A program made the translations under genes and the position numbers. A model generated the notes under the pieces. That model was not told where the DNA came from. It made no database searches and was given only the letters and a program-made list of their open reading frames with translations. Of a stretch of DNA of 64,000 nt, positions 17,701 through 59,168 are shown piece by piece; positions within the stretch are counted from its first letter, which is position 1; the number at the start of each line of letters is the position of its first letter. The stretch comes from Stegostoma tigrinum. Its lineage: Eukaryota. The stretch is taken from positions 5,498,497-5,562,496 of the forward strand of contig NC_081387.1 of assembly GCF_030684315.1 (NCBI RefSeq), given 5' to 3'.

Positions 17701-17816
17701 CTACAAGGGTTGTATTTGGAGCTCGGACTCAGATATGCTCATCAGTTTCAGTTCCACATTATTGTCCATGACTTCCTGCTGAAGGCGAGTGGGCCTTGTC
17801 TCCAGAATGGGATGAG
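17701..17816 (-). CDS. Gene A exon 6, cytoplasmic tail (AHPILETRPTRLQQEVMDNNVELKLMSISESELQIQPL*)
   Basis: Acceptor ttttcatttatttcag, phase 1; strongly conserved with 47170-46944 while flanks diverge. Small extra exons in the 9.4-kb intron cannot be excluded. Confidence 0.75.
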
Positions 17817-26800: not shown

Positions 26801-29800
26801 CAGTAGCAATTTAAAGGCATCTTGACAGATATATGAATAGGTGAGGAATAGAGGTGTGCAGATCACACAAAGATAAAAGGTTTTTACTTGACAAAGGAGA
26901 CGTGTCAGTGCAGGCTTTGTGGGCCAAGGCCCTAGGAGATAAAGAAACCAGAACTGCACACAATGCTCCAGCACCGAGGCTCTCCAAATGCAGTAAAATT
27001 TCTTTACTTCTATGGTCAAATCCTCTTGCAATAAAGGCCAACATACCATTCACCATTGGTTAAATGACACATTCTGCATTGCCATATTAAACATGGTTAA
27101 TTCACACACTATCCCCTCACTTCTACATTGCCCTCTCTCTCACTCTCCCTTCTGATTTTCCTTTATTCCCAATACTGGAGATCGCCTCACACTCACTGTT
27201 TCCCTAAGTTCTACATTCCGCTCTGTCTGATTCTTACCTCTCCATGGCCTTTTCCAGATGATTATCCCAAATGTAACAGCCAGTCCAGTGACTAATCCAA
27301 TTATTATTGAAAACTGGGACCATGCTCTGTTTATTTCTGGGATTTCTGAAACACATTGAGTAATATCAGTATTAGTTATGTTCCTGTATCCACACCCAGT
27401 GCACTGGGGACAATTTTAACTGATCCCACCCATTGGAAATTGATGGAATTGGTTGATACACTGCATTAAGCTGAGAGTGAAATTTCCCTGGAATTGGGTA
27501 TCTGCAGAAAGAATAGTCTCAGGAAACGCAATTGAACTTTTTCTGTTCATGTTAACATCTTTCTAGTCTTCGACAAGTAATGTTGTTACGCCTTCTTTTC
27601 GGTAATAAACCTGTGCTTGGTGTTTGAAGACCATCTGCAGGCTCTTGTGAATATTCAGAAATTTCAGTGTCTATCCAGCACCATAAGTAACAAAAAGTTA
27701 AGCAAATGATCCATCAAGCCAGACTTTTTAAACAGCCTTAAGGCTGGGACAAGGTGGTTTTTTTGGTCTCGCAAGGAATTAGGGCATCTGGGAAGCAGAG
27801 AGGCAAGAAGAATTAATGACAATGGCAGCAATAGTCATGAGTATGCTCAGTGGTGTACTTTACATTTTTTAAAGTGTTAAATTAAATTGTGGTGAAAATC
27901 ATCCAAAACCTCACTGAATGGTGGAACAGAGTTAAAAGGTAAACATAAGCACAAGCTTGCATGCACATGCACACATTGTATCAGCTCCTTACCCCACTGA
28001 TATAGCTTGGCCTCTGCCAGGCTGCTGTGTTCAATTTGGCAGGAATATTGATCCTCATCCCCAGCACTGATTTCAATCTCTTTCTGGATCTGATGGGTCC
28101 CATCATGGTTCGGTCGAATCCCCGAGGATTGTGTCTCAGACAGGACTTCTCCATTCCTTAGCCAGGTCACCTCGATGTCTACAGGATAAAATCCAGTGAC
28201 CAGGCAGGAGAGAGTGAGCGGCTTGTCCTGATGATTGGGCTCATTTCTGGAGATGAACACTTCAGGCTGAACTGTGATGGGAAAGGGTGAGAACACAAAC
28301 AATAGACAGACATTGAATAGACTAGGACAGCAGTTACATAGATCAGTGAGGTTAGATCTGAACATGGGGCCAAAACTAAAACACATACCTCTCCTTCCAA
28401 AATATTGTCTTCCAAAGTGTAAGCGTGACTTTAAACGCTCAACAAGTTCCTCTTCCAAGTGCCATTTCCAGTGCTTGTTCCATGCTTTATCAGAATCCCA
28501 TTCCTCCTTGATCTTCACTGCAAAGTGATTAGATGCAACCCATCTCATTCTGTCTGATTCTAAACTAATAAAGTCCTTTCCATCAAATCCAACATTCATC
28601 GATCTCTTAATGAAGCCATCAGCAGTGATCTCAACAGTCCTTATGAATTGCAAAATATGCACTCCTGCCAAAGATTAAAAGAGCAACAAAAATTAATTGT
28701 TCATGTAAAAGTCCCTTTAAGATATAATTGGAACTCTACGCAACAAGTTTTAAAATCAGAGATCCTCCTGCTGGCTGAGTGTTATCCTGATAGATTGTTT
28801 TGAGGGTTCTGCTACAGTAACAAGATCTTTTAGTGGAATCAGTTTTAAATGAATAGATCCATCGCCATGTGAACTAATAAGACATTTGTAACTCATTTGA
28901 CTTTGAGCCTGCTTTGCTACTCATTGCTGACTTAATTGTGGCCTTAATTTCACTTTCTTTCTTTTGCCACGAACAACCCATCACTCTTTTGTATATCAAA
29001 AATCTGTCTAACTCAGCCCAGCCTACATTCAATTACCCAGTGCATTGGAGATGACAATCAATGTATCCATCATCTCTGTACCTGTTTATTTTAAGACTCG
29101 AAGGAGGTAACATTTGGGCTTATTAGTTGATCTCTTTTTTTGCTGTGGTGACTATGATTAGTTTAGGTTCATTTTTGTCTCAGGATTTTTATTTTTGAGA
29201 TTTGGTGTCTTCTATTTCGAAGATTATAACAATTGTTCAAAACCACTTCCATTTCTTTACTTGCCATTATTAATTCCCCAGTTTTATCTCCTACATTTTT
29301 TCTGACTCTCTTCACACAGAATCCTGAGGTAGACCTGGGTATTGTGCATTCACATGCCAATGTACTAAGTGCTGTGCTCTTTTATGATTCCACTGATGGG
29401 CAGCATATGGATGAGTAATGGAAAGGGACCAAGAATTGATTCATGGCAAACACCAGAAGTAACACTGAGGGAACAGGAAGAAAAGCTGTATATGCTGACT
29501 GTAAGGCACTTTGAATAGATCGGAAAGGACCTAGGTAAGTTATCTTCCAACCAGTTGGATGACATAGAAGCTTGAGGGGAATGCTATGGCCAATCACTTC
29601 TCACTGCCACTTAAAATCCTTCAAGCTAGCACTTAGACCTTTCAAGTGGTTTGGTTATCCCACAGCTTCTCAAATTTTCACTAAACAAGTGGCCTTGCAC
29701 AGATGCAGACAAGATTGGATATTTTAAAATTGACCTTGATAAACCACTTTCTGGCCCGTGGACTTGCCCTCTTTCCCTAGTTAAAAAAAAATGCTTTTGT

Positions 29801-32800
29801 AGTTGAGTCAGCAACAGCCCACTCTTTCCCTGGCACTTAGTCTGCCTACTGACAGCTCCATCTTGAACAGAATTTTAAGGCAAGTTGCAGGTAACTTTAT
29901 CCACACCTTACAGAAAAGTAATGAGGAAAGAGTTGATGGAGGAATGAGAAAGATTTGCTCAAGGGAATAACCACTCCAGAAAGCAGGAAAGCTAGGAAAT
30001 TTGTAGCAGTCAGTTTATGTAATAAATATGTGCAGACATTTAGAACAATACATTATTAAGCTCTTATAATGACAGCTCACAAGAAAGACAAGTGAGATCT
30101 TTCATTTAGGTGCAGTTACAACATTTAAGAAACATTTGGATAGGGACATGAATAGGGAAAGTTCAGAAAGCTGTGGGCCAAGCACAGGTAAATGGGACTA
30201 ATTTAATTTGGGGAACCTGGTTGGCATGGTTGAAGCATCTGTTTCTGTGCTGTATGACTCTAGGCTGCAGACACGTTGAGAAAAGGTGAAAAGCGAATTT
30301 TTTTTTTACGTGGTCAAGCAAGTCAAGGGATAAGAGCTGTTCTGGGGTGAAAACTTGATTGGTGGGATGTAAATATGAAGTTCCAATAAAATATATTCAG
30401 GAGATGATCATGTATTTAAAGCTTCTTCTTTTACAGAAAAATGATGCTAATAGAAGATTTGAAGGAGAGAGGGACAGAATCTGAGGACTGAGAAATGACA
30501 ATGACAACCAAGACAAAGACAACGAGGCAGTCTACAACTGTACTGCACCAGCAAAAGCTTGTTCTGATGAAAGGTCGCTGGACAAAAAAGTGAACTTTTT
30601 TTCTTTCCACGGCTGTTGCTTGACCTGCTGAACATTTCCCATGGCTTCTGTTCTTATAGTAGTAGAAACTCTTATAGACACACAGTCAGAAAGTAAGCCT
30701 GAAATAGCCAAGAGTTTAACCAACAGCCTGAAGTGAGAAACCATTAAGTTGCACAAAGTAGTAAAATAAACACATTATTCACACCAGGAGCTGCATGAGG
30801 AGTCAGTTGCCAGGGTGGATCCACATGGAGGTTTGACAACTAGCACAGGGCCATGACTGAAATATTTGAATTGTTGTTTTACATATTTCTGACTGCAGCT
30901 TCACTGCTGTGCAGAAGCCAATTCCATAAGATAGCACGTATCCAGCGAAAGTTTTCTTGCCTGTTGTGTGACCAGGTACCCATTCCACAGTTGCCTAATA
31001 TAGCTGTGGTCAGAGTAACCCAAACAGTGTGTGTCTCAGCCTCACATATTGCAGTCTAACTGTGGTTGTATTCTGATCTGCTTTAAACAGGGCAGTTTGT
31101 AACAGAATCCATATCAGCGATCTTACCAGATGTTTGGTTTGTACTTTTCATTACCATTCTCAGATTCTCCCTTGCCTTGGCAGAATGTTCGTTCCCTTGC
31201 TTTGTGAGAATTTTCCAGTAATTAGCATCATACGAGTCTGTCATCCACTGCTGTAAGGAGACTGTCTGACAGGTATTACTGTCATAATGGGTCACAGGAA
31301 CTCCATTGATCATTGTTACACCAAAATACTCAGGTAGGTCAGTTGAGCCAGAGACAGCTATAAAAGCTGCAGTAAAGATTTTGTTCTCTGTAGATTTAAA
31401 CAAAAGTGAAAGGGTCAGGTTTGTTTACTTGATCAAGCAGAGCCTATACCCAATAACCCCACATCAGTGACAGGAGTCATTAAAACAGTCAAATCCACTG
31501 TCTCAATAGGCAGCTGCAATCGGTAATGGAGTCATTTGGATTTTCTAATAATAACACTCAGATTGCCACTCCACCCTTGTTTAACATAAAGCTCCATATT
31601 TCTGGCAGGAGGTTCTGATTCGGCTCCTTCCGAAATGTGGAGCCATACTTGCATCATGACAAGTCAGTACGGTGACTTCAGTGGATACCTCACAGCACGA
31701 GGAAGCCAGGTTTGATCCCACCCTTGGGTGACTGTCTAGTGGAATTTGAACATTCTCTCTACGTCTGTGCGGGTTTCCGCTGGGGGCTCTGGTGTCCTCC
31801 CATGGTCCAAAGATCTGCAGGCGAGGTGGATTGGCCATGCTAAATTGTCTGTAGTGTCCAGGGATGTGCAGGTTGGGTAGGTTAGCCATAGGATATGCAG
31901 GGTTAGGGTGTGGGTGGGATTGTCTTCAGTGTCAGTGTGGATGTGATAGGCTGAATGGCCAGCTTCCATACTGTAGGGATTCTATAACATTTAAAAAAAA
32001 GGTCTTTGGCAGTGCAGGACAGTCTTCACACAGTAGAAGCAGCCAAGGAGACGTCAATGCAAATTGAACATTGAATTCTATTTTTATCTGGAGGGGGAAA
32101 AAATGATTAGCAATCCACTTTCCCTGTTCCAATCAGAAACTGAGAATCAACTACTGTTTATATTCTGGAATAAAAGTACATTAGATTATCAAGGCTCCAT
32201 TTTACTGCAAACATGAAAGTTGATCATTTCTTGAATTCAAATTGCAAACCATAGCTTTAAATTGAGGGGTGAAAGATATAGGACGGATGTCAGAGGTAGT
32301 TTCTTTACTCAGACAGTAGTAAGGGAATGGAATGCTTTGCCTGCAACGGTAGTAGATTTGCCAACTTTAGGTACGTAAGTCGTCATTGGACAAGCATATG
32401 GATGTACATGGAATAGTGTAGGTTAGATGGGCTTGAGATCGGTATGACAGGTCGGCACAACATCGAGGGCCGAAGGGCCTGTACTGTGCTGTAATGTTCT
32501 ATGTTCTAACCAGAGGTTAAATGATTGGCTAGTCTCAGAAAAACTAAACTAAGCAATGACAGTCTGAATCGTCTGTGACCAGTAACCAGGACATTGAAAC
32601 TCACACAGGGTAATGCTTTAAGAACCAAGGACAGCATTTAATTATTATTAGTGTGATGGCCCCCCTACCCCATCACTGTCAGCCAATCACATGGTGGGAA
32701 TGAGGAAGATGGACATGTCACAAGAGATTGAGAATGGAGGCAATCTTACTCTCTTGCCTTTTGGAGGCCATCACAATTCTGTGCTGCAAGTTACTAAACT

Positions 32801-35800: not shown

Positions 35801-37769
35801 TGGGAATCTTGCAGGTGGTGGTGTTCCTATGTATCTGTTTCCCTTGTCCTTTGAGGTGGAAGTGGTCTTGTGTTTGGAAGGTGATGCCTAAGGATCATTG
35901 GCAAATTTATGCAACGAATCTTGAGGTTGGTACACACTGCTACTACCGAGTATCAGTGGTGGATGAAATGCATAAGGTGCTAATTAAGGGGGCTGTTCTG
36001 TCCTGGATAGTGTCAAGTTTCTTGAGTGTTGTTGGAGCTGCACCCATCCAGGTAAGTGGGGAGTATTCCATGACTCTCCTGATGTGTGCCTTACAGATGA
36101 AACTTTGCGGAGACGGGGGCAAGTTACTTGTCACGGTATTCCTAGCCGCTGACCTGCTGTTGTAGTCACCTGGTATTTACATAGAGAGTCCACTTCAGTT
36201 TCTGGTCAATGGTAACTTCCGAGATGTTGATAGTGGAACATTTAGTGATGGTAACACCAATGAATATCTGATTAGAATAAATGTTATTGGAGTTGGTCAT
36301 TGCCTGGCATTTGTGCGGTGCAAATGTTACTTGCCATTTGTCAGCCCAAGCCTTGATAATGACCAGATCTTGTTGCATCTGAACATGGATAATGTGAACT
36401 GCAGATACTGGAGAATCCAAGATAACAAAGTGCGAAGCTAGATGAACACAGCAGGCCAAGCAGCATCGCAGGAGCACAAAAGCTGACGTTTCGGGGATGA
36501 AGGGTCTAGGCCCGACACGTCAGCTTTTGTGCTCCTGAGATGCTGCTTGGCCTGCTGTGTTCATCCAGCTCCACACTCTGCATCTGAACATGGACTGCTT
36601 CAGCATCTCTGCAGTCACAAATGGTATTGAACACTGGGTATGTTCACTAATGATGCACACTTCTGACCTTACGATGGAGGGAAATTAATTGATGAAACAG
36701 TTGAAGATGGTTTGGCCTAGGACACCACCCTGGGGACCTCCTGCAGAGATGTTCTGGAGCTGAGATGACTGACCTCCATCAACTACAACCAGCTACCCTC
36801 ATGCCAGGTGTGACTCCAACCAGCACCAAATTTGCTCCCCTGATATGCATTGTTTGCAGTCATCTGCTCCTTTGCCTTTAGGTACCTCATTTCCCTTCAC
36901 CCTTCTCATTTTCTCTTCATCTCTCTCTCCACCTTCTTCCAAAACCATTAAATTTTTGACCCATGATTCTGTAACTTCCACCCTACGTTCATTTTCCTGC
37001 AGCACTCTGACTGTAGCCTTCACTCCAAAGTAGCTGGTGTAAAGGGCAAAAGACTGCTGCTTCCTTCAGGAGGATGAATTGGTAGTGAGTTTAACCTGAA
37101 GGTCACCACGGCCCAGGCAAAGGGCGAGATTGAGAAGGTAGATCTGTGGCGGTAACCATGGCTGATGCATGAATGAACCCAAACCGTCCAGCCATTGAGC
37201 TACCCAACAACCCGCCCCGCCCAGTTCAGCGTAAACCTCTATTTAATACCCACCATTGACGCATTCGTTTTACTTTGCAGTCAGATACATCGCAATCCCG
37301 GCGAATGAAACCTCTCCTGGCAACGCGCCTATCTACATGTAGTCCTTCCACCCTCCTCCTCCCCCCCCCACCCGTGCCCGGACTAGCCTCTGCCACTCGG
37401 TCATCCTCCAGGGCCCCATACAACTCAGATTCAATTAGTTTTGCCTGTGCTTCTTTCATCAGGGCACCAGGATATTGTATCCATGGGAACAGGATGGAGA
37501 AGGACACACACGCAGATATAAAAAAAGGGAAAGAAAACTGTCAGACACATCTAAATATTATCGCTCGGTACAGACACAAAGACAGTCTCTACAAGTTACT
37601 GCAGTATTTTGACACACGTTTCCTGCAGGCACTGACGATCCCATTCCTTATAAAATCCCAGGGATTTCCCAAACTGGAGAATGGGAGTGAGAATGAAAAG
37701 CTGACTTCTGAACTCACCAGCAGATGCCCAGGAAAAACACAGGGAGATGGAAAAAAGGATCAGCAACAT
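17701..37769 (-). CDS. Gene A: non-classical MHC class I heavy chain, 6 coding exons join(37769-37718,31387-31127,28664-28389,28271-27993,27345-27238,17816-17701), 363 aa; candidate member of a shark non-classical lineage such as UEA (lineage not confirmed)
   Basis: Exons of 52+261+276+279+108+116 = 1092 nt join in frame through phase-1 GT-AG introns. Domain order is signal peptide, alpha1, alpha2, Ig-C1 alpha3, TM, cytoplasmic tail, as in class I genes. Confidence 0.9.
17980..18780 (+). mobile_element. CR1 LINE 3' fragment
   Basis: SKFADNTK, WQMEFNLDKC, terminal ACTCTATG/ATTCTAT repeats. Confidence 0.9.
19135..19650 (+). mobile_element. CR1 LINE 3' fragment (specific to copy A)
   Basis: LERAQKKFTR, EVVETGILRAFKRNLDEYMDRKG; absent at the paralogous site near 47535. 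Confidence 0.88.
21360..21660 (+). mobile_element. Penelope-like GIY-YIG C-terminal remnant
   Basis: DSVIGQHLLDNADCAWSY motif typical of PLE endonuclease tails. Confidence 0.55.
23533..23570 (+). ncRNA. Minimal type-I hammerhead ribozyme motif in a Penelope-derived element (element about 23533-23660)
   Basis: AAGCU | CUGAUGA | A-GGGUCUAGGCCC (stem II) | GAAA-C-GUC (cleavage triplet) | AGCUU; stem I AAGCU/AGCUU is fully complementary. Confidence 0.7.
24590..24900 (-). mobile_element. CR1 LINE 3' fragment
   Basis: TRGHGFKVRREKFKRDLRGNFFKQRVVHVWN. Confidence 0.9.
24900..26920 (+). mobile_element. Old CR1 LINE RT remnants, partly shared with the gene B intron
   Basis: Degenerate GNYRSVSL, GFVKRQSCLTN, FQKAF, VPQ.SVLGP motifs; collinear with about 49900-51080. 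Confidence 0.8.
27238..27345 (-). CDS. Gene A exon 5, connecting peptide and TM (EIPEINRAWSQFSIIIGLVTGLAVTFGIIIWKRPWR)
   Basis: Acceptor gtttcag and donor G|GTAAGA; hydrophobic stretch followed by a basic stop-transfer; paralogous to 53678-53797. Confidence 0.9.
27993..28271 (-). CDS. Gene A exon 4, alpha3 Ig-C1 domain
   Basis: Acceptor tcacag and donor G|GTAAGG; 279 nt; LSCLVTGFYP, VTWLRNG, PNHDGT, YSCQIEHSSL. Confidence 0.96.
28389..28664 (-). CDS. Gene A exon 3, alpha2 domain lacking both cysteines
   Basis: Acceptor tggcag and donor G|GTATGT; 276 nt (canonical alpha2 length); motifs HILQ, GFDGKDFISL, W147. Confidence 0.95.
31127..31387 (-). CDS. Gene A exon 2, alpha1 domain (ENKIFTAAF...YDSN...YW...NQTSG)
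   Basis: Acceptor tacag at 31388 and donor G|GTAAGA at 31126; 261 nt; class I alpha1 motifs LPEY, YDS, QWM, YW and the N86 glycan site NQT. Confidence 0.93.
31665..31985 (+). mobile_element. HE1/V-SINE
   Basis: tRNA-like head and V-domain core GTGGAATTTG..TCTGTGCGGGTTTCC..CCAAAGAT.TGCAGG..GGATTGGCCATGCTAAATTG. Confidence 0.85.
32248..32508 (+). mobile_element. CR1 LINE 3' end (same young subfamily as 2772-3095)
   Basis: Near identity with 2838-3085. Confidence 0.88.
34145..35170 (-). mobile_element. CR1 LINE RT-to-3' fragment
   Basis: FSDWRSVTSSVPQ, MLRLYNTLVRPLLEYSVKFWSP. Confidence 0.92.
35170..35330 (-). mobile_element. Penelope-derived terminal fragment with a hammerhead-like motif (GACAC variant)
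   Basis: Reverse complement reads ..CCCCCTCTCTGATGAAGGGTCTAGGCCCGACACGTCAGC.. Confidence 0.7.
35600..36840 (-). mobile_element. L2/CR1-group LINE 3' portion (related copy at 56140-57000 +)
   Basis: WADKWQVTFAPHKCQAM, KAHIRRVMEYSPLTWMGAAPTTLKKLDTIQ. Confidence 0.85.
36390..36578. mobile_element. Fold-back Penelope-derived element with 16-bp TSD
   Basis: TGCATCTGAACATGGA at 36374-36389 and 36579-36594; inverted arms. Confidence 0.88.
37661..37670. promoter_or_regulatory. NF-kB consensus site in intron 1 of gene A
   Basis: GGGATTTCCC matches GGGRNNYYCC; 47 bp into intron 1. Confidence 0.45.
37718..37769 (-). CDS. Gene A exon 1, signal peptide MLLILFSISLCFSWASA
   Basis: ATG at 37769; hydrophobic core ending in an A-x-A cleavage motif; donor G|GTGAGT at 37717; phase 1 joins alpha1 as G|AG (Glu); MHC-type promoter boxes lie just upstream. 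Confidence 0.88.
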
Positions 37770-46943: not shown

Positions 46944-47170
46944 TTACATTGGAACACTGCCTGCAGGGTTTAATTTGTCTGCTTCTGATGGATGCTCTTC
47001 TTCATTTGTGGCATTACTCCCTTGCTCCAGGTCATGTGGACCATTTGACTCTCTCTGCAAGGGTTGTATTTGGAGCTCGAGCTCAGATATGCTCATCAGT
47101 TTCAGTTCCACATTATTGTCCATGACTTCCTGTTGATGGAGCGTGGGCCTGGTTCCTAGAGAGGGTTGAG
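46944..47170 (-). CDS. Gene B cytoplasmic exon (AQPSLGTRPT...NPAGSVPM*)
   Basis: Acceptor ttttcattcatttcag, phase 1; paralogous to gene A 17816 downward. Confidence 0.75.
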
Positions 47171-53100: not shown

Positions 53101-56100
53101 TAAAGTTGTTACAATAAATTTAGGTATTTTACTTTTTATGATTAAAACTGTTGAAAATTTTTATCTTGTGTCGCAGTCACATTGGCAAATTGATAACCTA
53201 AGTGGTCCATTTGGGATTCTATATGGTTTCTGATGGCTTGTGGCACATGGGGCGTGATAATCAATGCAGCCACACCCCCACGCCATTAGATCTTAAAATA
53301 ATCACAGGAATCAAAATTCAGTAGGATGCTGAATCTTCATTGTACTTGCTTTTTGGCAAGTTTATTCTTTCATAGGTAAGGAGTCCAAAACTGCACACAA
53401 TACTCCAGGATTGAGGCTCTCCAATTTTTTTTAAGACTTCTTTACTCCGATGGTCAAATTCTCCTGCAATAATGGCCAACATTCAGTTGATCTTTGGTTT
53501 GATCATACATTCCACATCACCATATTAAAACGCAGTCAATTCACTGACCATCCCCACAGTTCCAAATACCCTTCTCTCTCACTCTCCCCACTCACTGTTC
53601 TGTACTCCCAGTACAGGAGATTCCCCCACACTCACTCTGTCCCTTCAGTTCTACATTCCCCACTCTCTGATTCTTACCTCTCCATGGCTGAATCCAGAAG
53701 AGTATTCCCATTATCCCGACAATAACAGCCAGTGCACTGATCATTGATGCAGTTACGGTTCCAAGATGAAGGTATCCCACACTATTTTCTGGAATTTCTG
53801 AAACATATTTGCATAATATCAGGATTTTTTTCTCTGATCCTCAATATATTTGCAGTGTTCTGTCAGTCTAGTTTTATGCTCTTTTATCTTCCTGGAAGAA
53901 ATTACACAACATTGGGATCAATATTGCCGATATTTCCGCATGTATATTGATAGAAAGCATCCCATTTTGATTGAAGGCTAGCTCTTTGTATAAACAAAAT
54001 GTTAAAAATCCATCCCCTTATTTTTTTTCACAGAGTGATAATGTGATTCAGGGGCAGAGAGAGGTCATGGAAATGTTGCAATGAACACATTTGAGACTTG
54101 AGCAGCTAGGCTGTCACTCCATTACAGTTCCGAGAGAATGCTGCTCTGCCGAATGTTGGTGGAAACAATGCTGTGGCACAGCTGCATGGTGAGAAGGACA
54201 CTACTCATGTGTACTTTTAGAAGGACAGTATTGGGAGAAGGCCAGGCAGCAATGAAGATGCATTGAACTGTTCAATGAACAATGTTGAGAGTCAGTGAGG
54301 GTCAGTACTGAGCAAGTGCTCTACTCTCAGAGAGTGTTAGTACTGAGGGAGTGCCACTGTGTCGGGGGCAGGGAGCAGGGGGAGAGGGTGGGTGGTGGGG
54401 GTCAGAACTGAGAGAGTACCACACCGTCGAAGGGTCAGTGCTGAGGGAGCGGCGCACCGTCAGACGGTCAGTGCTGAGGGAGTGGCGCACCGTCAGACGG
54501 TCAGTGCTGAGGGAGCGGCACACCGTCAGAGGATCAGTTCGAGGGAGTGCCGCACTGTCGGAGGGTCAGTACGGAGGGAGTGCTGCACCATCACAGGGTC
54601 AGTACTGATGGAGTGCTGCACTGTCAGAGGGTCAGTACTGATGGAGTGCTGCACTGTCAGAGGGTCAGTACTGACAGTGTCACACTGTCAGTGGATCAGA
54701 ACTGAGTAAATGCTACACTATTGGAGGGTTGGTACGGGGGAATGCTGCAATGTTTGAGGGGCAGTACTAAAGTAGTTAGGGGGTCAGTTAGCACAGTTGG
54801 TTGGACAGCTGGTTTGTAATGCAGAGTAATGGCAACGTCATGAATTCAATTCCCATACCAGGAAGAATAGAGGAATCGAATATTATTTAAATGGTGAAAG
54901 GCTGCAGAAAGCTACAGCAAAGAGGGATTTGGCAGTCCTTGTTATATAAATCATAAATAAAAACTAGCATCCAAGTTCAGTGGGTAATAGGGAAGGCACA
55001 TGGGCTGTTGGTTTCAAATGTTGCATGTTGTTCAAAGAGAATAGAGTGGAAAGGTTCTGAAGAAGGGTCTAGGCCCGAAACGTCACCTTTCCTGCTCCTA
55101 CGATGCTGCTTGGCCTCCTGTGTTCATCTAGTTCTACACCTTGTTATCTCAGAGTGGAAAGGTAGGGGGGGGTTTGCTAAAACTCTCCAAGGCAGAAGTC
55201 AGACCACAATTGGAATACTGTGAACAGTTTTGTGCTCCTTATTTAGGGAAAGATATAAGACAGGCCAAAGAAAGTTGACTAGCTGATACCGGGTAAGGAG
55301 GCACTGTTTAGGAGGAAACATTGAGTATGTTGGGCTTGTACTCATTAGAATTTAGAAAAATGAGAGGTGACCTTACGGAAAAATGCAAGATTTTTCAGGG
55401 CTTGATCAGGTAGGTAGAGAAAGATTGTTTTCTCCTTGGTGAAAAGCCTTAGACCAGATTTTTTTAAATTTCAGAATTGGTTCTGCATTTAAAATAGAGA
55501 TGAGAAAGATTTTCTTCTCCCACAGGGTAGAAAATCTGTGCAATTCTTTATCACAGAGATCTGACAAGGCTACAGGAGAGCAAGTGAGGAGCAACACCAG
55601 TTAAGTCCAAAACAGGTGTCAACCTATTGAAAGTACAACCCAAGACTATTTATCCATCAAACAGAGTAATCAGCAATGTGACAGATGGGACTAAATGTTC
55701 CTGTAATAAGTAGATCAGATCTGCAGTCCTAACGTACACAATATGAAAGTTCATCACAAGCAGCTAAATAGTGATAGAAGATGCTCCACAAATACCCCTA
55801 CCTTAATGATAAGGAGGTCAGTTGATCAGGTTTTGGTCTTGTAAAGCAAAAATTGTGTGTTCAAATTCTACCTGCACTTACAAATGACTGCCTGAAGCAA
55901 GCTCCACCTGTTCTACATCGCTCAGAATTAGACTGAAAGCAACCTCTTTGTCCTGCCATATACATGGTTTTCAATCTCAATTAGAAGTCATATAGGCAAA
56001 GGTAGCCTAGATGAGGAGTTTATAGAATGTTTTCAGGTTAGAATATCATGTTCTCAAGCTGAGCAGTGGGCAGACTGTATTAGGCTTGATATTGTGCTAA

Positions 56101-59100
56101 GGTATAAGATTAATTAGTGAAAACGCTCCACAACAAGCGTTCCTTAAAGATAGTGTCCTGTGTTTGACCATCTTCAATTGCTTCATCAATGACCTTCCCT
56201 CCAATTTAAGGTCAAGATCATTGATGAATATGTAATGTTCAGTTTCATTGCTAACTCCCCAGGTGCTGAAGCAATCTGCGACCAAATACAACAAGACCTG
56301 GCCAATATTTAGGTTTTAGGTGGGGAGTGATAAGTAATATTCATGCCATACAAGCATTACGCATTGCCAACAAGAATCTAATCATTCTCTTTGATGTTCA
56401 ATGACATGACCATCATTCACCGTCAATATCCTGGGGTTACAATTTACCAGAAACTTTGCTGGACCAGTCATATAAATGCTGTGGCAGGGCACAGGTTGGG
56501 AATTCTGTGATGAGTAACTCTCACATTCTGTTTCCCCAGTGCTTGCCCCGCAAGTCACAAGTCAGCACTGTGGTAGCATACTCTCCATTTGCCTGATGAG
56601 TTCAGCATCAAAAACACTGAGGCACATCAACATCATTCTGGACAGAGTGGTCAGCTTGACTGGCATCCCATCCATCCCCTTCAACTTTCACTCCAAAACC
56701 TATACAGCATATTTGCAGTGTGTACAAATAAATATTATGCAATGCAGCAACTTGACAACAATACATGACTTCTACTAGTTAGAAGGACAGAAGCAGCAGA
56801 CTCAATGTGAACAAAACCACTTACAAGTTTGCCCTCTAAGTCACACATGCTCACTATGGCTCAACCAAGCTCCTGGAACTCCTTTTCTAACTGGACTGTG
56901 GCTGTCCCTAAACCACATGGACAACAGCAGTTCAATGAGGAAGTTCACTGCCACCTTCTAAAGGCAATCAGGGATGGCTAATAAATGTCCGTGCTGCCAA
57001 AATCGTTATGAAAGAATTTTATAAAAAAGCAGGTGGTGTGGAGGCAGGATAACATTGGGACAATAGGAAGCAATGTTATGACATTGGGAGTGAGGGGGTG
57101 GTTGGAGTGATAAGAGGCTGGTGAAAGTGTTCGTGGTATGGAGGGTGATAAAGAAATGAATGTGATGATAGGATAATGGGGTTCATGAAGGGATGGTAGG
57201 GAGTTTTTGTTTGTTCATTCACATGATGAGGGCGTCGCTGGCTAGGCCAGCATTTATTGCCCATCCCAGACGGTGTTTAAATTCAACTATATTGCTGTGG
57301 GTCTGGAGTCACATGTAGTTCAGACCAGGTAAGGATGTCAGTTTCCTTCCCAAAACAGCATTCGTGAACCAGATGAGTTTTTCCTGATAATTGACAACAG
57401 GTTAATGGTCATCAACAGTCTCCTCGAATTCTATATTCTGCCGTGGTAGGATTCAAAGCCGGCTCCCCAGAACATTACTTGGGTCTCTGAGGTAACAGTC
57501 CGGTGATAACAATAGGCAGTCACCTCTCCATGATGAGGGGATAGGTGCGTGACATATATGGGTTGAAAGACACAGAACGAGTAAGGAGGATGAGGCAGTG
57601 AGTGTTCGAAAACCTGCTGATATCATGTACAAACTGTCACCATTGATAATTCAGTTCCCTACTGCATCATACCTCACCAGCAGCATCTCGCTTCCAAAAA
57701 GATTTAAGGGGATAAGAGAGCAGGAGAAGTAAAAGAAGTTACAAAAAGAGAAATAAACAGTAGCAAAGAAAAAATAACAAAGGGAAATGGCAACATGAAG
57801 TCATCAGTCGAATGAGGGACACCATACACTCTGACTTACTATCTGGAGCCTCGGGAGAGGTTGATGAGTAGGAGAACTGCACGTAGAAAATACACTTTCC
57901 CTGTACTCCTGTTATGATATAAATGAGTCTGGTCTAGAAGTTTGCTGGGGCATATTTATAAATATCAGTATTTACTGCACCAACTAGATCCATCTTTCAG
58001 AATGCAACTTTCGTTTCTTGTTGGATTGTTTGGAAAATCCAAACTCTCAAGGATTTCATTTCTAGTTCAGCAATATGTCAAAGACTTAACTTCAGGCTCT
58101 CCCCAACCTCACGTTCATGTTGCCTTATCAGGAGAAGTAGAAGCAGGAGTAGCCATATTTGCCTATTCTACCTTTCAATACGAACCTGGCTCATTTTGTG
58201 CCTTACTGCCACTTTCCTGCTTATCCTCCAGATCCCTTGGTTACCTGAGACAACAAACTCTGTCTATTTCAGACTAAAATATATTCAGCAACAGAATATT
58301 CACATTCGCGTAGGGGACACAATTCATAATTCTTAAAGGGTGGCCATTTCTAAAGGGCAGTTCAGAGTAAGAACACCTCAGTATCTGGGGATCGAAAATT
58401 GTGGCAGTATCTCATTCATCTTCCCTTCTCAGCCATGCATGTTCTCCCGCACTCCTTCTCCCTTGCTGTCCCACACTTTCAGTTCAGTTCCTTACCCCAC
58501 TGATGCAGCTTAGCCTCTGTCATGCTGCTGTGTTCAACCTGACAGGAATATTGATCCTCATCCCCATCACTGATTTCAATCTCTTTATGGATCTGATGAG
58601 TCCCATCGTGGTTCGGTCGAATCCCTGAGGATTGTGTCTCGGACATGACCTCTCCATTCCTTAGCCAGGTCACCTCGATGTCTACAGGATAAAATCCAGT
58701 GACCAGGCAGGAGAGAGTGAGCGGCTTGTCCTGACGATTGGGCTCACTCCTGGAGATGAACACTTCAGGCTGAACTGTGATGGGAAAGGGTGAGAACACA
58801 AACAATAGACAGACACCGAGTGGAATAGGAGAACGGTTTCATTGATCAGTGAGGTTAGATCTGAACATGGGATCAAAAATTCAAACACACACCTTTCCTT
58901 TTGAGATGCTCCTTTCCAATGTTTAAACGTGATTTTAAGCGTTCAACAAGCTCCACTTCCATCAGCCATTTCCAAAACTTGTTCCAGGATTCGTCAGAAT
59001 CCCATTTCTCTTTTGTTTTCACTGCATTGTGATGCGATGCGACCCATCTCATTCTGTTCGACTCCAAACTAATGTAGTCCTTTCCGTCAAAGGCAACATT

Positions 59101-59168
59101 CATTGTTCTCTTAACGGAGCCATCTTCAGACACCTCAACATTCCTTATCCATTGCAAAATATGCTTTC
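46944..59168 (-). CDS. Gene B: second non-classical MHC class I heavy chain, 5'-partial, join(59168-58893,58774-58496,53797-53678,47170-46944)
   Basis: Same exon phases as gene A, same alpha2/alpha3 exon sizes, GT-AG junctions. No alpha1 or leader exon recognised in 59170-64000, so these are presumably outside the window. Confidence 0.88.
47625..49010 (-). mobile_element. CR1 LINE RT-to-3' fragment
   Basis: Continuous reverse-strand CR1 RT motifs and 3' tail. Confidence 0.9.
51260..51640 (-). mobile_element. Probable Harbinger transposase N-terminal remnant
   Basis: Weak similarity to the 6000-6200 Harbinger segment; heavily degraded. Confidence 0.4.
53678..53797 (-). CDS. Gene B TM exon (EIPENSVGYLHLGTVTASMISALAVIVGIMGILFWIQPWR)
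   Basis: Acceptor gtttcag and donor G|GTAAGA; 120 nt; shares the EIPE...PWR frame with gene A. Confidence 0.9.
54296..54770. repeat. 33-bp minisatellite derived from a Deu-type SINE core
   Basis: Unit GGTCAGT(G/A)CTGAGGGAG(C/T)G(G/C)(C/T)GCAC(C/T)GTCAGA(C/G) at 54433, 54466, 54499 and onward; roughly 12 units. Confidence 0.9.
54860..55570 (+). mobile_element. CR1 LINE fragment containing a Penelope-derived insert (55056-55150, 13-bp TSD)
   Basis: LEYCEQF, RGDL motifs; AGAGTGGAAAGGT at 55043-55055 and 55151-55163. Confidence 0.85.
58496..58774 (-). CDS. Gene B alpha3 Ig-C1 exon
   Basis: 279 nt; 9/93 aa differences from gene A; donor G|GTAAGG. Confidence 0.96.
58893..59168 (-). CDS. Gene B alpha2 exon, no cysteines
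   Basis: Acceptor tgacag and donor G|GTGTGT; 276 nt; about 67% aa identical to gene A alpha2 (30/92 differences by manual count). Confidence 0.95.

Follow-up and report, generated by a model that had tools for sequence, protein, structure and literature searches.

Genes A and B of the zebra shark Stegostoma tigrinum are interpreted as intact, conserved nonclassical MHC class I genes that lack the Cys101-Cys164 disulfide bond of the alpha2 domain, very likely belong to the UEA family, and are likely both to bind beta2m and to carry a fixed non-classical ligand (probability of the overall reading, approximately 0.88). Their exons were located in the window, which is the whole stretch of 64,000 nucleotides of contig NC_081387.1 that was analyzed. 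Because the lineage is already described and Cys-less sequences are present in the accessible part of the published alignment, the finding is confirmatory, and it means that a class I platform lacking the alpha2 disulfide can be maintained across shark orders. A possible novelty is an old subclade in which Arg99, Arg167 and Arg171 are invariant within a tryptophan-lined groove.

Alpha2 domains without Cys101 and Cys164

The features, in window positions, are as follows.

37718..37769, (-) strand: gene A leader exon (coding part)
31127..31387, (-) strand: gene A alpha1 exon; N86 glycan site and Y59 kept, one unpaired Cys near position 43
28389..28664, (-) strand: gene A alpha2 exon; 92 codons, without Cys
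28633..28635, (-) strand: gene A codon 101; GTT, Val replaces Cys
28444..28446, (-) strand: gene A codon 164; CTT, Leu replaces Cys
27993..28271, (-) strand: gene A alpha3 exon; C1-set, both Cys retained
27238..27345, (-) strand: gene A transmembrane exon
17701..17816, (-) strand: gene A predicted last coding exon; ends at TAG, no contig joins the transmembrane exon to it
58893..59168, (-) strand: gene B alpha2 exon; without Cys, Val101 at 59139-59137 and Leu164 at 58950-58948
58496..58774, (-) strand: gene B alpha3 exon
53678..53797, (-) strand: gene B transmembrane exon
46944..47170, (-) strand: gene B predicted last coding exon

The leader and alpha1 exons of gene B are located 160-790 bases past the window end (in locus L029), and a third gene, C, is present further along the contig than gene B.

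The alpha2 exon of gene A comprises 276 nt with AG/GT ends and phase 1-1, its bounds 28664-28389 are exact, and Pfam MHC_I matches it as a class I alpha2 domain. Translation of the exact exons of genes A and B yields no Cys, as the initial annotation had read. For gene A, independent phmmer (HMMER) alignments with solved class I chains give Val at the C101 position and Leu at the C164 position, the same residues that had been assigned there by hand. Gene B has the identical GTT (101) and CTT (164) codons, each of which is two base changes away from a Cys codon. A recount of the alpha2 differences between the two genes returns the same 30 of 92 residues, and the beta2m-contact motifs Q96, D119-G120 and D122 that had been listed as retained are present in both.

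As described in the accessible part of a structural review (PMC8236899), the alpha2 disulfide is well conserved and stabilizes the part of the groove that is unsupported by an Ig domain, and the raised C101-C164 pair is linked to the strand being irregular at Gly100. The annotation had called this bond almost invariant. In a sample biased toward relatives of the query, the absence of both cysteines is rare beyond the A/B family, and the observation exceeds chance: among 173 full alpha2 domains from 150 library representatives (15 partial domains set aside), 160 contain the Cys pair, nine lack C164 alone and four lack both residues. Gly100 is found in 150 of the 160 Cys-pair domains of these representatives. 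Three of the four domains without both Cys belong to the A/B family, and the fourth is a teleost gene model. In the class I gene model P0147 of Caranx melampygus, both alpha2 Cys are missing apparently independently of the shark family. Mouse CD1d2 may be a precedent.

Two other sources of a disulfide were considered. A replacement bond within alpha1 is rejected, as alpha1 contains one Cys in A, none in B, and none or one in most family members; in the ectodomains spliced by script, the only Cys of A and B are the alpha3 pair plus the single unpaired alpha1 Cys of A. Read-through of the alpha2-alpha3 intron is set aside as a Cys source, since this intron has an open frame in A but is closed in B and C, and the contigs show it removed by splicing. 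In gene A the intron (window 28272-28388) is 117 nt long, in frame and stop-free and would add several Cys if retained; the short intron is open in six of the 12 paralogs examined, and some intronic cover exists in runs X5 and X11. Elsewhere in the family, 30/61 members other than A/B/C carry an unpaired alpha1 Cys at HLA position 45, and 8/74 rows carry one near position 71, each a possible site for a dimer or a covalent ligand.

The family set contains 82 shark proteins, of which two are two-domain proteins; with three partial domains dropped, 81 alpha2 domains from 13 shark species and six orders were compared, two isoform pairs included. Position 101 is occupied by Val (75), Ala (3), Ile (2) or Leu (1) and never by Cys, and Gly100 is likewise absent from all 81. 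Loss of Cys101 is common to the whole family and is not special to genes A and B. The residue at 164 is variable (Leu 28, Phe 20, Tyr 8, Ser 7, Cys 6, Gly 5 and others), and the carriers of C164 are scattered over the family tree. From the absence of Cys101 throughout, the variation at 164 and this scatter, we infer that Cys101 was lost once and that 164 then varied. In this scenario Cys101 would have disappeared together with Gly100 before the split of the shark orders, and position 164, its partner gone, would have become free to vary. The description of the two cysteines as replaced together is true of A and B, but it is overstated for the family, in which 164 varies and is still Cys in 6/81 domains whereas 101 is Cys in 0/81. 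A special sublineage defined by the loss is not supported, as the loss at 101 is family-wide and is also found in dogfish UCA in the accessible part of an alignment published in 2023 (PMC10751288). The contact residues remain nearly fixed across the 81 domains (Q96 in 80, D119 in 79, G120 in 81 and D122 in 81).

Intact and conserved genes in a cluster with broken copies

Splicing by script yields open frames of 363 aa for A and 404 aa for B with AG/GT ends, and the leader, alpha1, alpha2, alpha3 (C1-set) and transmembrane exons and the class I fold are present, the features of an MHC class I heavy chain. The NG86 dN/dS values of A versus B are 0.42 for alpha1, 0.24 for alpha2 and 0.22 for alpha3; in this comparison of paralogs, which had been suggested as a check, the values indicate purifying selection. 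Over all three domains of A, B and C, dN/dS ranges from 0.22 to 0.47, and the alpha2 median is 0.30 (0.23-0.60) for 36 pairs among the nine paralogs with open alpha2 exons (excluding L005, L011, L014 and all broken copies).

Contigs of 4/4 runs examined for gene A (22 listed) cover the exons, skip the introns and join at the predicted sites. The alpha1-alpha2 joint is seen in runs X1, X2 and X3, the alpha2-alpha3 joint in X1, X2 and X5 (with short sides of 25-27 letters) and the alpha3-transmembrane joint in X1, X3 and X5; for gene B, the alpha3-transmembrane joint is seen in X4 and X6 (2/4 runs). No run is recorded as RNA, so that their RNA origin is a guess, and the contigs differ by a few letters and come from related sequences, so the joints indicate splicing of relatives and not expression in this genome.

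In X1 and X2, the contigs run from the transmembrane exon of gene A into sequence absent from the window, and other tail exons may exist; a motif from the loose end of a contig has no match within the window. A 33-bp tandem array of 9.4 copies (window 54399-54706) lies in the alpha3-transmembrane intron of gene B; it attracts heavy contig cover in several runs and is a common repeat.

A search of the shark's own genome returns 28 alpha2 matches, all on the contig of the window. Nine are Cys-bearing class I genes and 19 are close paralogs at 5.5-7.1 Mb, seven of which (L012, L013, L015-L019) are broken by stops or frameshifts, and further paralogs are broken in alpha1 or alpha3. Such copies, and the last exon of gene A, which a TAG at window 17701-17703 shortens at a point past which the whale shark protein extends, are what would be expected if A and B were decaying pseudogenes whose cysteines were lost through drift. 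That explanation is hardly credible, however, given that A and B have frames without interruption from the ectodomain to the transmembrane segment, that dN/dS stays low in all three domains of A, B and C, and that the gene A alpha2 domain and a Heptranchias protein are 76% identical. The open spliced frames, the alpha2 dN/dS of 0.24 and the spliced contigs of relatives argue that the genes are not decaying, in line with the functional lineage first proposed, and genes A and B are almost certainly functional. The corresponding last exon of gene C also has an early TAG. Within the cluster, L014 (~5.799 Mb) is a paralog with a five-residue alpha2 insertion, Cys164, Val101 and a stop in alpha1, and L015-L017 have an insertion similar to that of L014 plus a frameshift.

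The alpha2 domain of gene A is 99% identical to that of whale shark, 91% to epaulette shark, 89% to bamboo shark and 76% to Heptranchias, and its named relatives are all sharks. Orthologue-like partners are found across orders for A (Heptranchias and carpet sharks), B (Mustelus) and C (white shark and others). An alpha2-only profile matches 100 proteins, of which 99 are from named sharks and one is unnamed; the lack of a ray or chimaera match is a weak absence because only 8000 candidates were scored.

Alpha3 appears homogenized among the paralogs, both in genes A and B (window 27993-28271 and 58496-58774) and family-wide, with dS values among A, B and C of 0.07-0.19 versus 0.48-0.89 for alpha1 and alpha2. 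On trees of 60 proteins, the shark order changes five times for alpha3, which is the minimum for six orders, versus 17 times for alpha2. Gene conversion of alpha3 with retention of old groove exons is likely.

The groove and its putative ligand

The AlphaFold2 model of the whale shark orthologue displays an eight-strand floor and two helices (alpha1-alpha2 pLDDT ~82-93); its alpha3 is poor (pLDDT ~54-82), and residue contacts cannot be read from it. Foldseek with this model retrieves class I chains at 28-35% identity, and no family structure is found among the PDB sequence matches, which makes gene A or C a conserved target for the first structure of the family and for ligand elution.

The loss of the Cys pair and of Gly100 points to a regular strand and to a helix that has changed its position; the groove is probably remodeled. 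Packing of the alpha2 helix on the floor would then fall to Val101 and Leu164, aided by Trp133, Trp147, Trp152, Trp156 and Met114. Since the contact residues are near invariant, A and B probably pair with beta2m. The product would be a membrane-bound class I heavy chain, likely paired with beta2m and likely holding a fixed non-classical ligand and not ordinary peptides. Of the nine peptide anchors (HLA numbering), A keeps three, B five and C four, whereas the UAA-2-like control keeps all nine.

Genes A, B and C fall in a 16-row clade (SH-aLRT 99 in a quick tree) that spans five shark orders. In 13/13 database proteins of this clade, picked on R171 and L164, residues R99, R167, R171 and L164 are fixed. 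Tyrosines 7, 159 and 171, which hold the peptide N-terminus, are gone in the A/B/C subclade. The disappearance of these tyrosines together with the fixed Arg99, Arg167 and Arg171 favors an anionic ligand. An anionic, partly hydrophobic molecule (lipid, acylated peptide or metabolite) may be shown to innate-like receptors, and the assignment of an anionic non-peptide ligand to A/B/C is tentative, at somewhat under even odds. At the positions that we take to face the groove from HLA structures, the mean KD value is -0.38 for the A/B/C clade (13 rows), +0.18 for the other family members (61 rows) and -0.53 for the single classical-type control; the A/B/C groove is less hydrophobic than that of the other members and near the control, which weakens a lipid reading. 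Genes B and C keep T143, K146 and W147, which are compatible with binding of a peptide C-terminus, and binding of unusual peptides by the A/B/C groove is judged somewhat less likely than an anionic non-peptide ligand.

The same residues admit a groove that holds no ligand. FcRn, HFE and MICA are models for class I molecules that work as receptors or without ligand, and in a molecule of this kind the tryptophans of the groove itself would occupy it and Arg-Glu salt bridges would seal it, with conservation reflecting a protein partner; only the ligand step of the proposed mechanism would be affected. W133, W147, W156 and M114 are present in 74/74 family rows and W152 in 73/74, E163 lies beside R167 in 12/13 A/B/C rows, and the helix segment ~163-172 is nearly fixed in the clade, all of which such a molecule would explain. 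It is judged somewhat less likely than an anionic non-peptide ligand. Against it, G24, G67 and A74 (13/13) leave room on the alpha1 side, and R99 on the floor, also fixed in 13/13, would be buried without a counter-ion.

Returning to a groove with a fixed ligand, its most specific form would be an ancient and slowly evolving three-gene UEA subclade on the beta2m side of the cluster, present in at least five orders, whose disulfide-free groove, with Arg99/Arg167/Arg171 as a fixed triad inside a tryptophan cage, would make it an MR1/CD1-like presenter of one conserved anionic non-peptide ligand. This form is improbable as a whole; if it holds, the presenter is built on an alpha2 architecture for which no structure has been solved.

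Identity and comparison with known systems

Gene A lies at 5.516-5.536 Mb on its contig, with paralogs on to ~7.1 Mb. A beta2m gene (Pfam search) is located at 5.449 Mb, ~67 kb from gene A, a BET-family gene, called brd2 by position only, at 5.34 Mb, and two C1-set exons, class II by position only, at 5.05/5.09 Mb; a UDA-like gene, labeled by eye against the PMC10751288 supplement, is located within the cluster at 6.41 Mb. UEA is described as a multicopy shark nonclassical class I family in the available parts of PMC10751288 and PMC12562908. The former gives, in its accessible sections, the white shark table order MHC-II, BRD2, B2M, MHC-Ib and, in section 9, assigns single-copy UDA together with multicopy UEA to a cluster that brd2 and beta2m flank. 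This same gene order supports the UEA identity, and the earlier guess at UEA is backed by both synteny and the published sequences in these sections.

Of the far-flank genes hsd17b8, rxrb, slc39a7 and col11a2, only rxrb was sought, and the RXR AF1 search gave four matches, none on this contig. Two near-identical UGA-like genes (L027/L054 and L028/L052, at 6.78 and 6.25-6.27 Mb) also occur within the cluster; UGA is called single-copy in a review, and the pair represents either a recent duplication or an assembly duplication.

In an alpha1+alpha2 tree of 33 rows, which contained no UCA, UFA or UHA, the family forms one side (28 rows) of a 99/97 branch that separates it from the UDA-like, UGA-like and UAA-2-like genes (labels given by eye from the accessible part of Supplemental File 10 of PMC10751288) and a teleost row, and long branches meet there; a one-clade test of the family root gives a p-AU of 0.53. 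Two database proteins of Stegostoma tigrinum match cluster genes at zero branch length. Supplemental File 10, in its accessible part, lists queries for previously reported lineages, among them the nurse shark query "UCA_NODE_26056", which has Val101/Leu164 and a Cys-less alpha2 domain, and differs by eye from paralog L004 at six of 92 alpha2 residues. The counterpart gene of this query groups with A/B/C in the 28-row clade (99/97), and the query is presumably UEA under a working label. The white shark gene LOC121291255, listed as MHC-Ib in the accessible table of PMC10751288, has a Val101/Leu164 domain identical to gene A at 57/91 residues.

An undescribed Cys-less class I lineage separate from UEA would account for the absence of UEA-named proteins among those retrieved and of UEA-labeled sequences in the accessible PMC10751288 supplement, and for the lack of a statement that UEA lacks the disulfide in the literature searched, passages of PMC4364491, PMC6769792, PMC9133507, PMC2948036 and PMC9586880 included, which did not extend to the original UEA description. 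It is very unlikely, because the A/B family is the dominant multicopy family where the available text of PMC10751288 places multicopy UEA, and the query set of previously reported lineages in that source includes a near-identical sequence. Genes A and B very probably belong to the described UEA lineage, and the question of novelty raised at the outset is largely settled against it, as the genes nest in this lineage with a Cys-less representative in the accessible published set. Our guess is that the Cys loss is probably already stated in the UEA papers of Almeida et al. or in the original UCA description.

Among the known systems, classical class I (shark UAA PDB 6LUP, chicken BF2, HLA-A2) has the same exon layout, fold, N86 glycan site, beta2m-contact residues and alpha3 disulfide, whereas the family lacks C101-C164 and G100, keeps 3-5/9 anchors and is ~30-35% identical. 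Classical class I (UAA) is rejected for A and B, which have neither the nine anchors nor C101-C164. UCA is not known outside Squaliformes. In the accessible part of Supplemental File 10 (PMC10751288), spiny dogfish UCA (AF515705) resembles the family in its Cys-less alpha2 domain with Val at both 101 and 164 and no Gly100; its alpha1 and alpha3, however, are clearly different by eye, and it was not retrieved in searches. UCA in the strict sense is rejected for A and B, as the Cys loss is shared but alpha1 and alpha3 differ widely by eye. UDA, UGA, UBA and UFA are MHC-linked nonclassical class I genes like the family but keep both alpha2 Cys in the sequences available; the UDA-like and UGA-like genes sit within the cluster yet outside the family in the tree, and UFA and UHA are not in the trees. 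The stingray "UHA" query is an MHC-linked nonclassical class I sequence with a Cys-less alpha2 domain like the family (PMC10751288 supplement, accessible part).

The published nurse shark query has Val101/Leu164 like gene A and differs from it by eye at 7/93 alpha3 and 33/92 alpha2 residues in the accessible supplement. Within the family, A/B/C group in a separate clade that carries R167/R171, while Y171 is retained in 54/61 of the remaining members. Almeida et al. 2021 are said to have found that UEA lost nine peptide-anchoring residues, occurs in sharks and not in rays or chimaeras, has a relatively hydrophobic groove and reportedly comprises three sublineages. UEA and the A/B family have in common that they are multicopy, shark-only (in the alpha2 search), located with UDA in an MHC-Ib cluster flanked by brd2 and beta2m, and deprived of peptide anchors.
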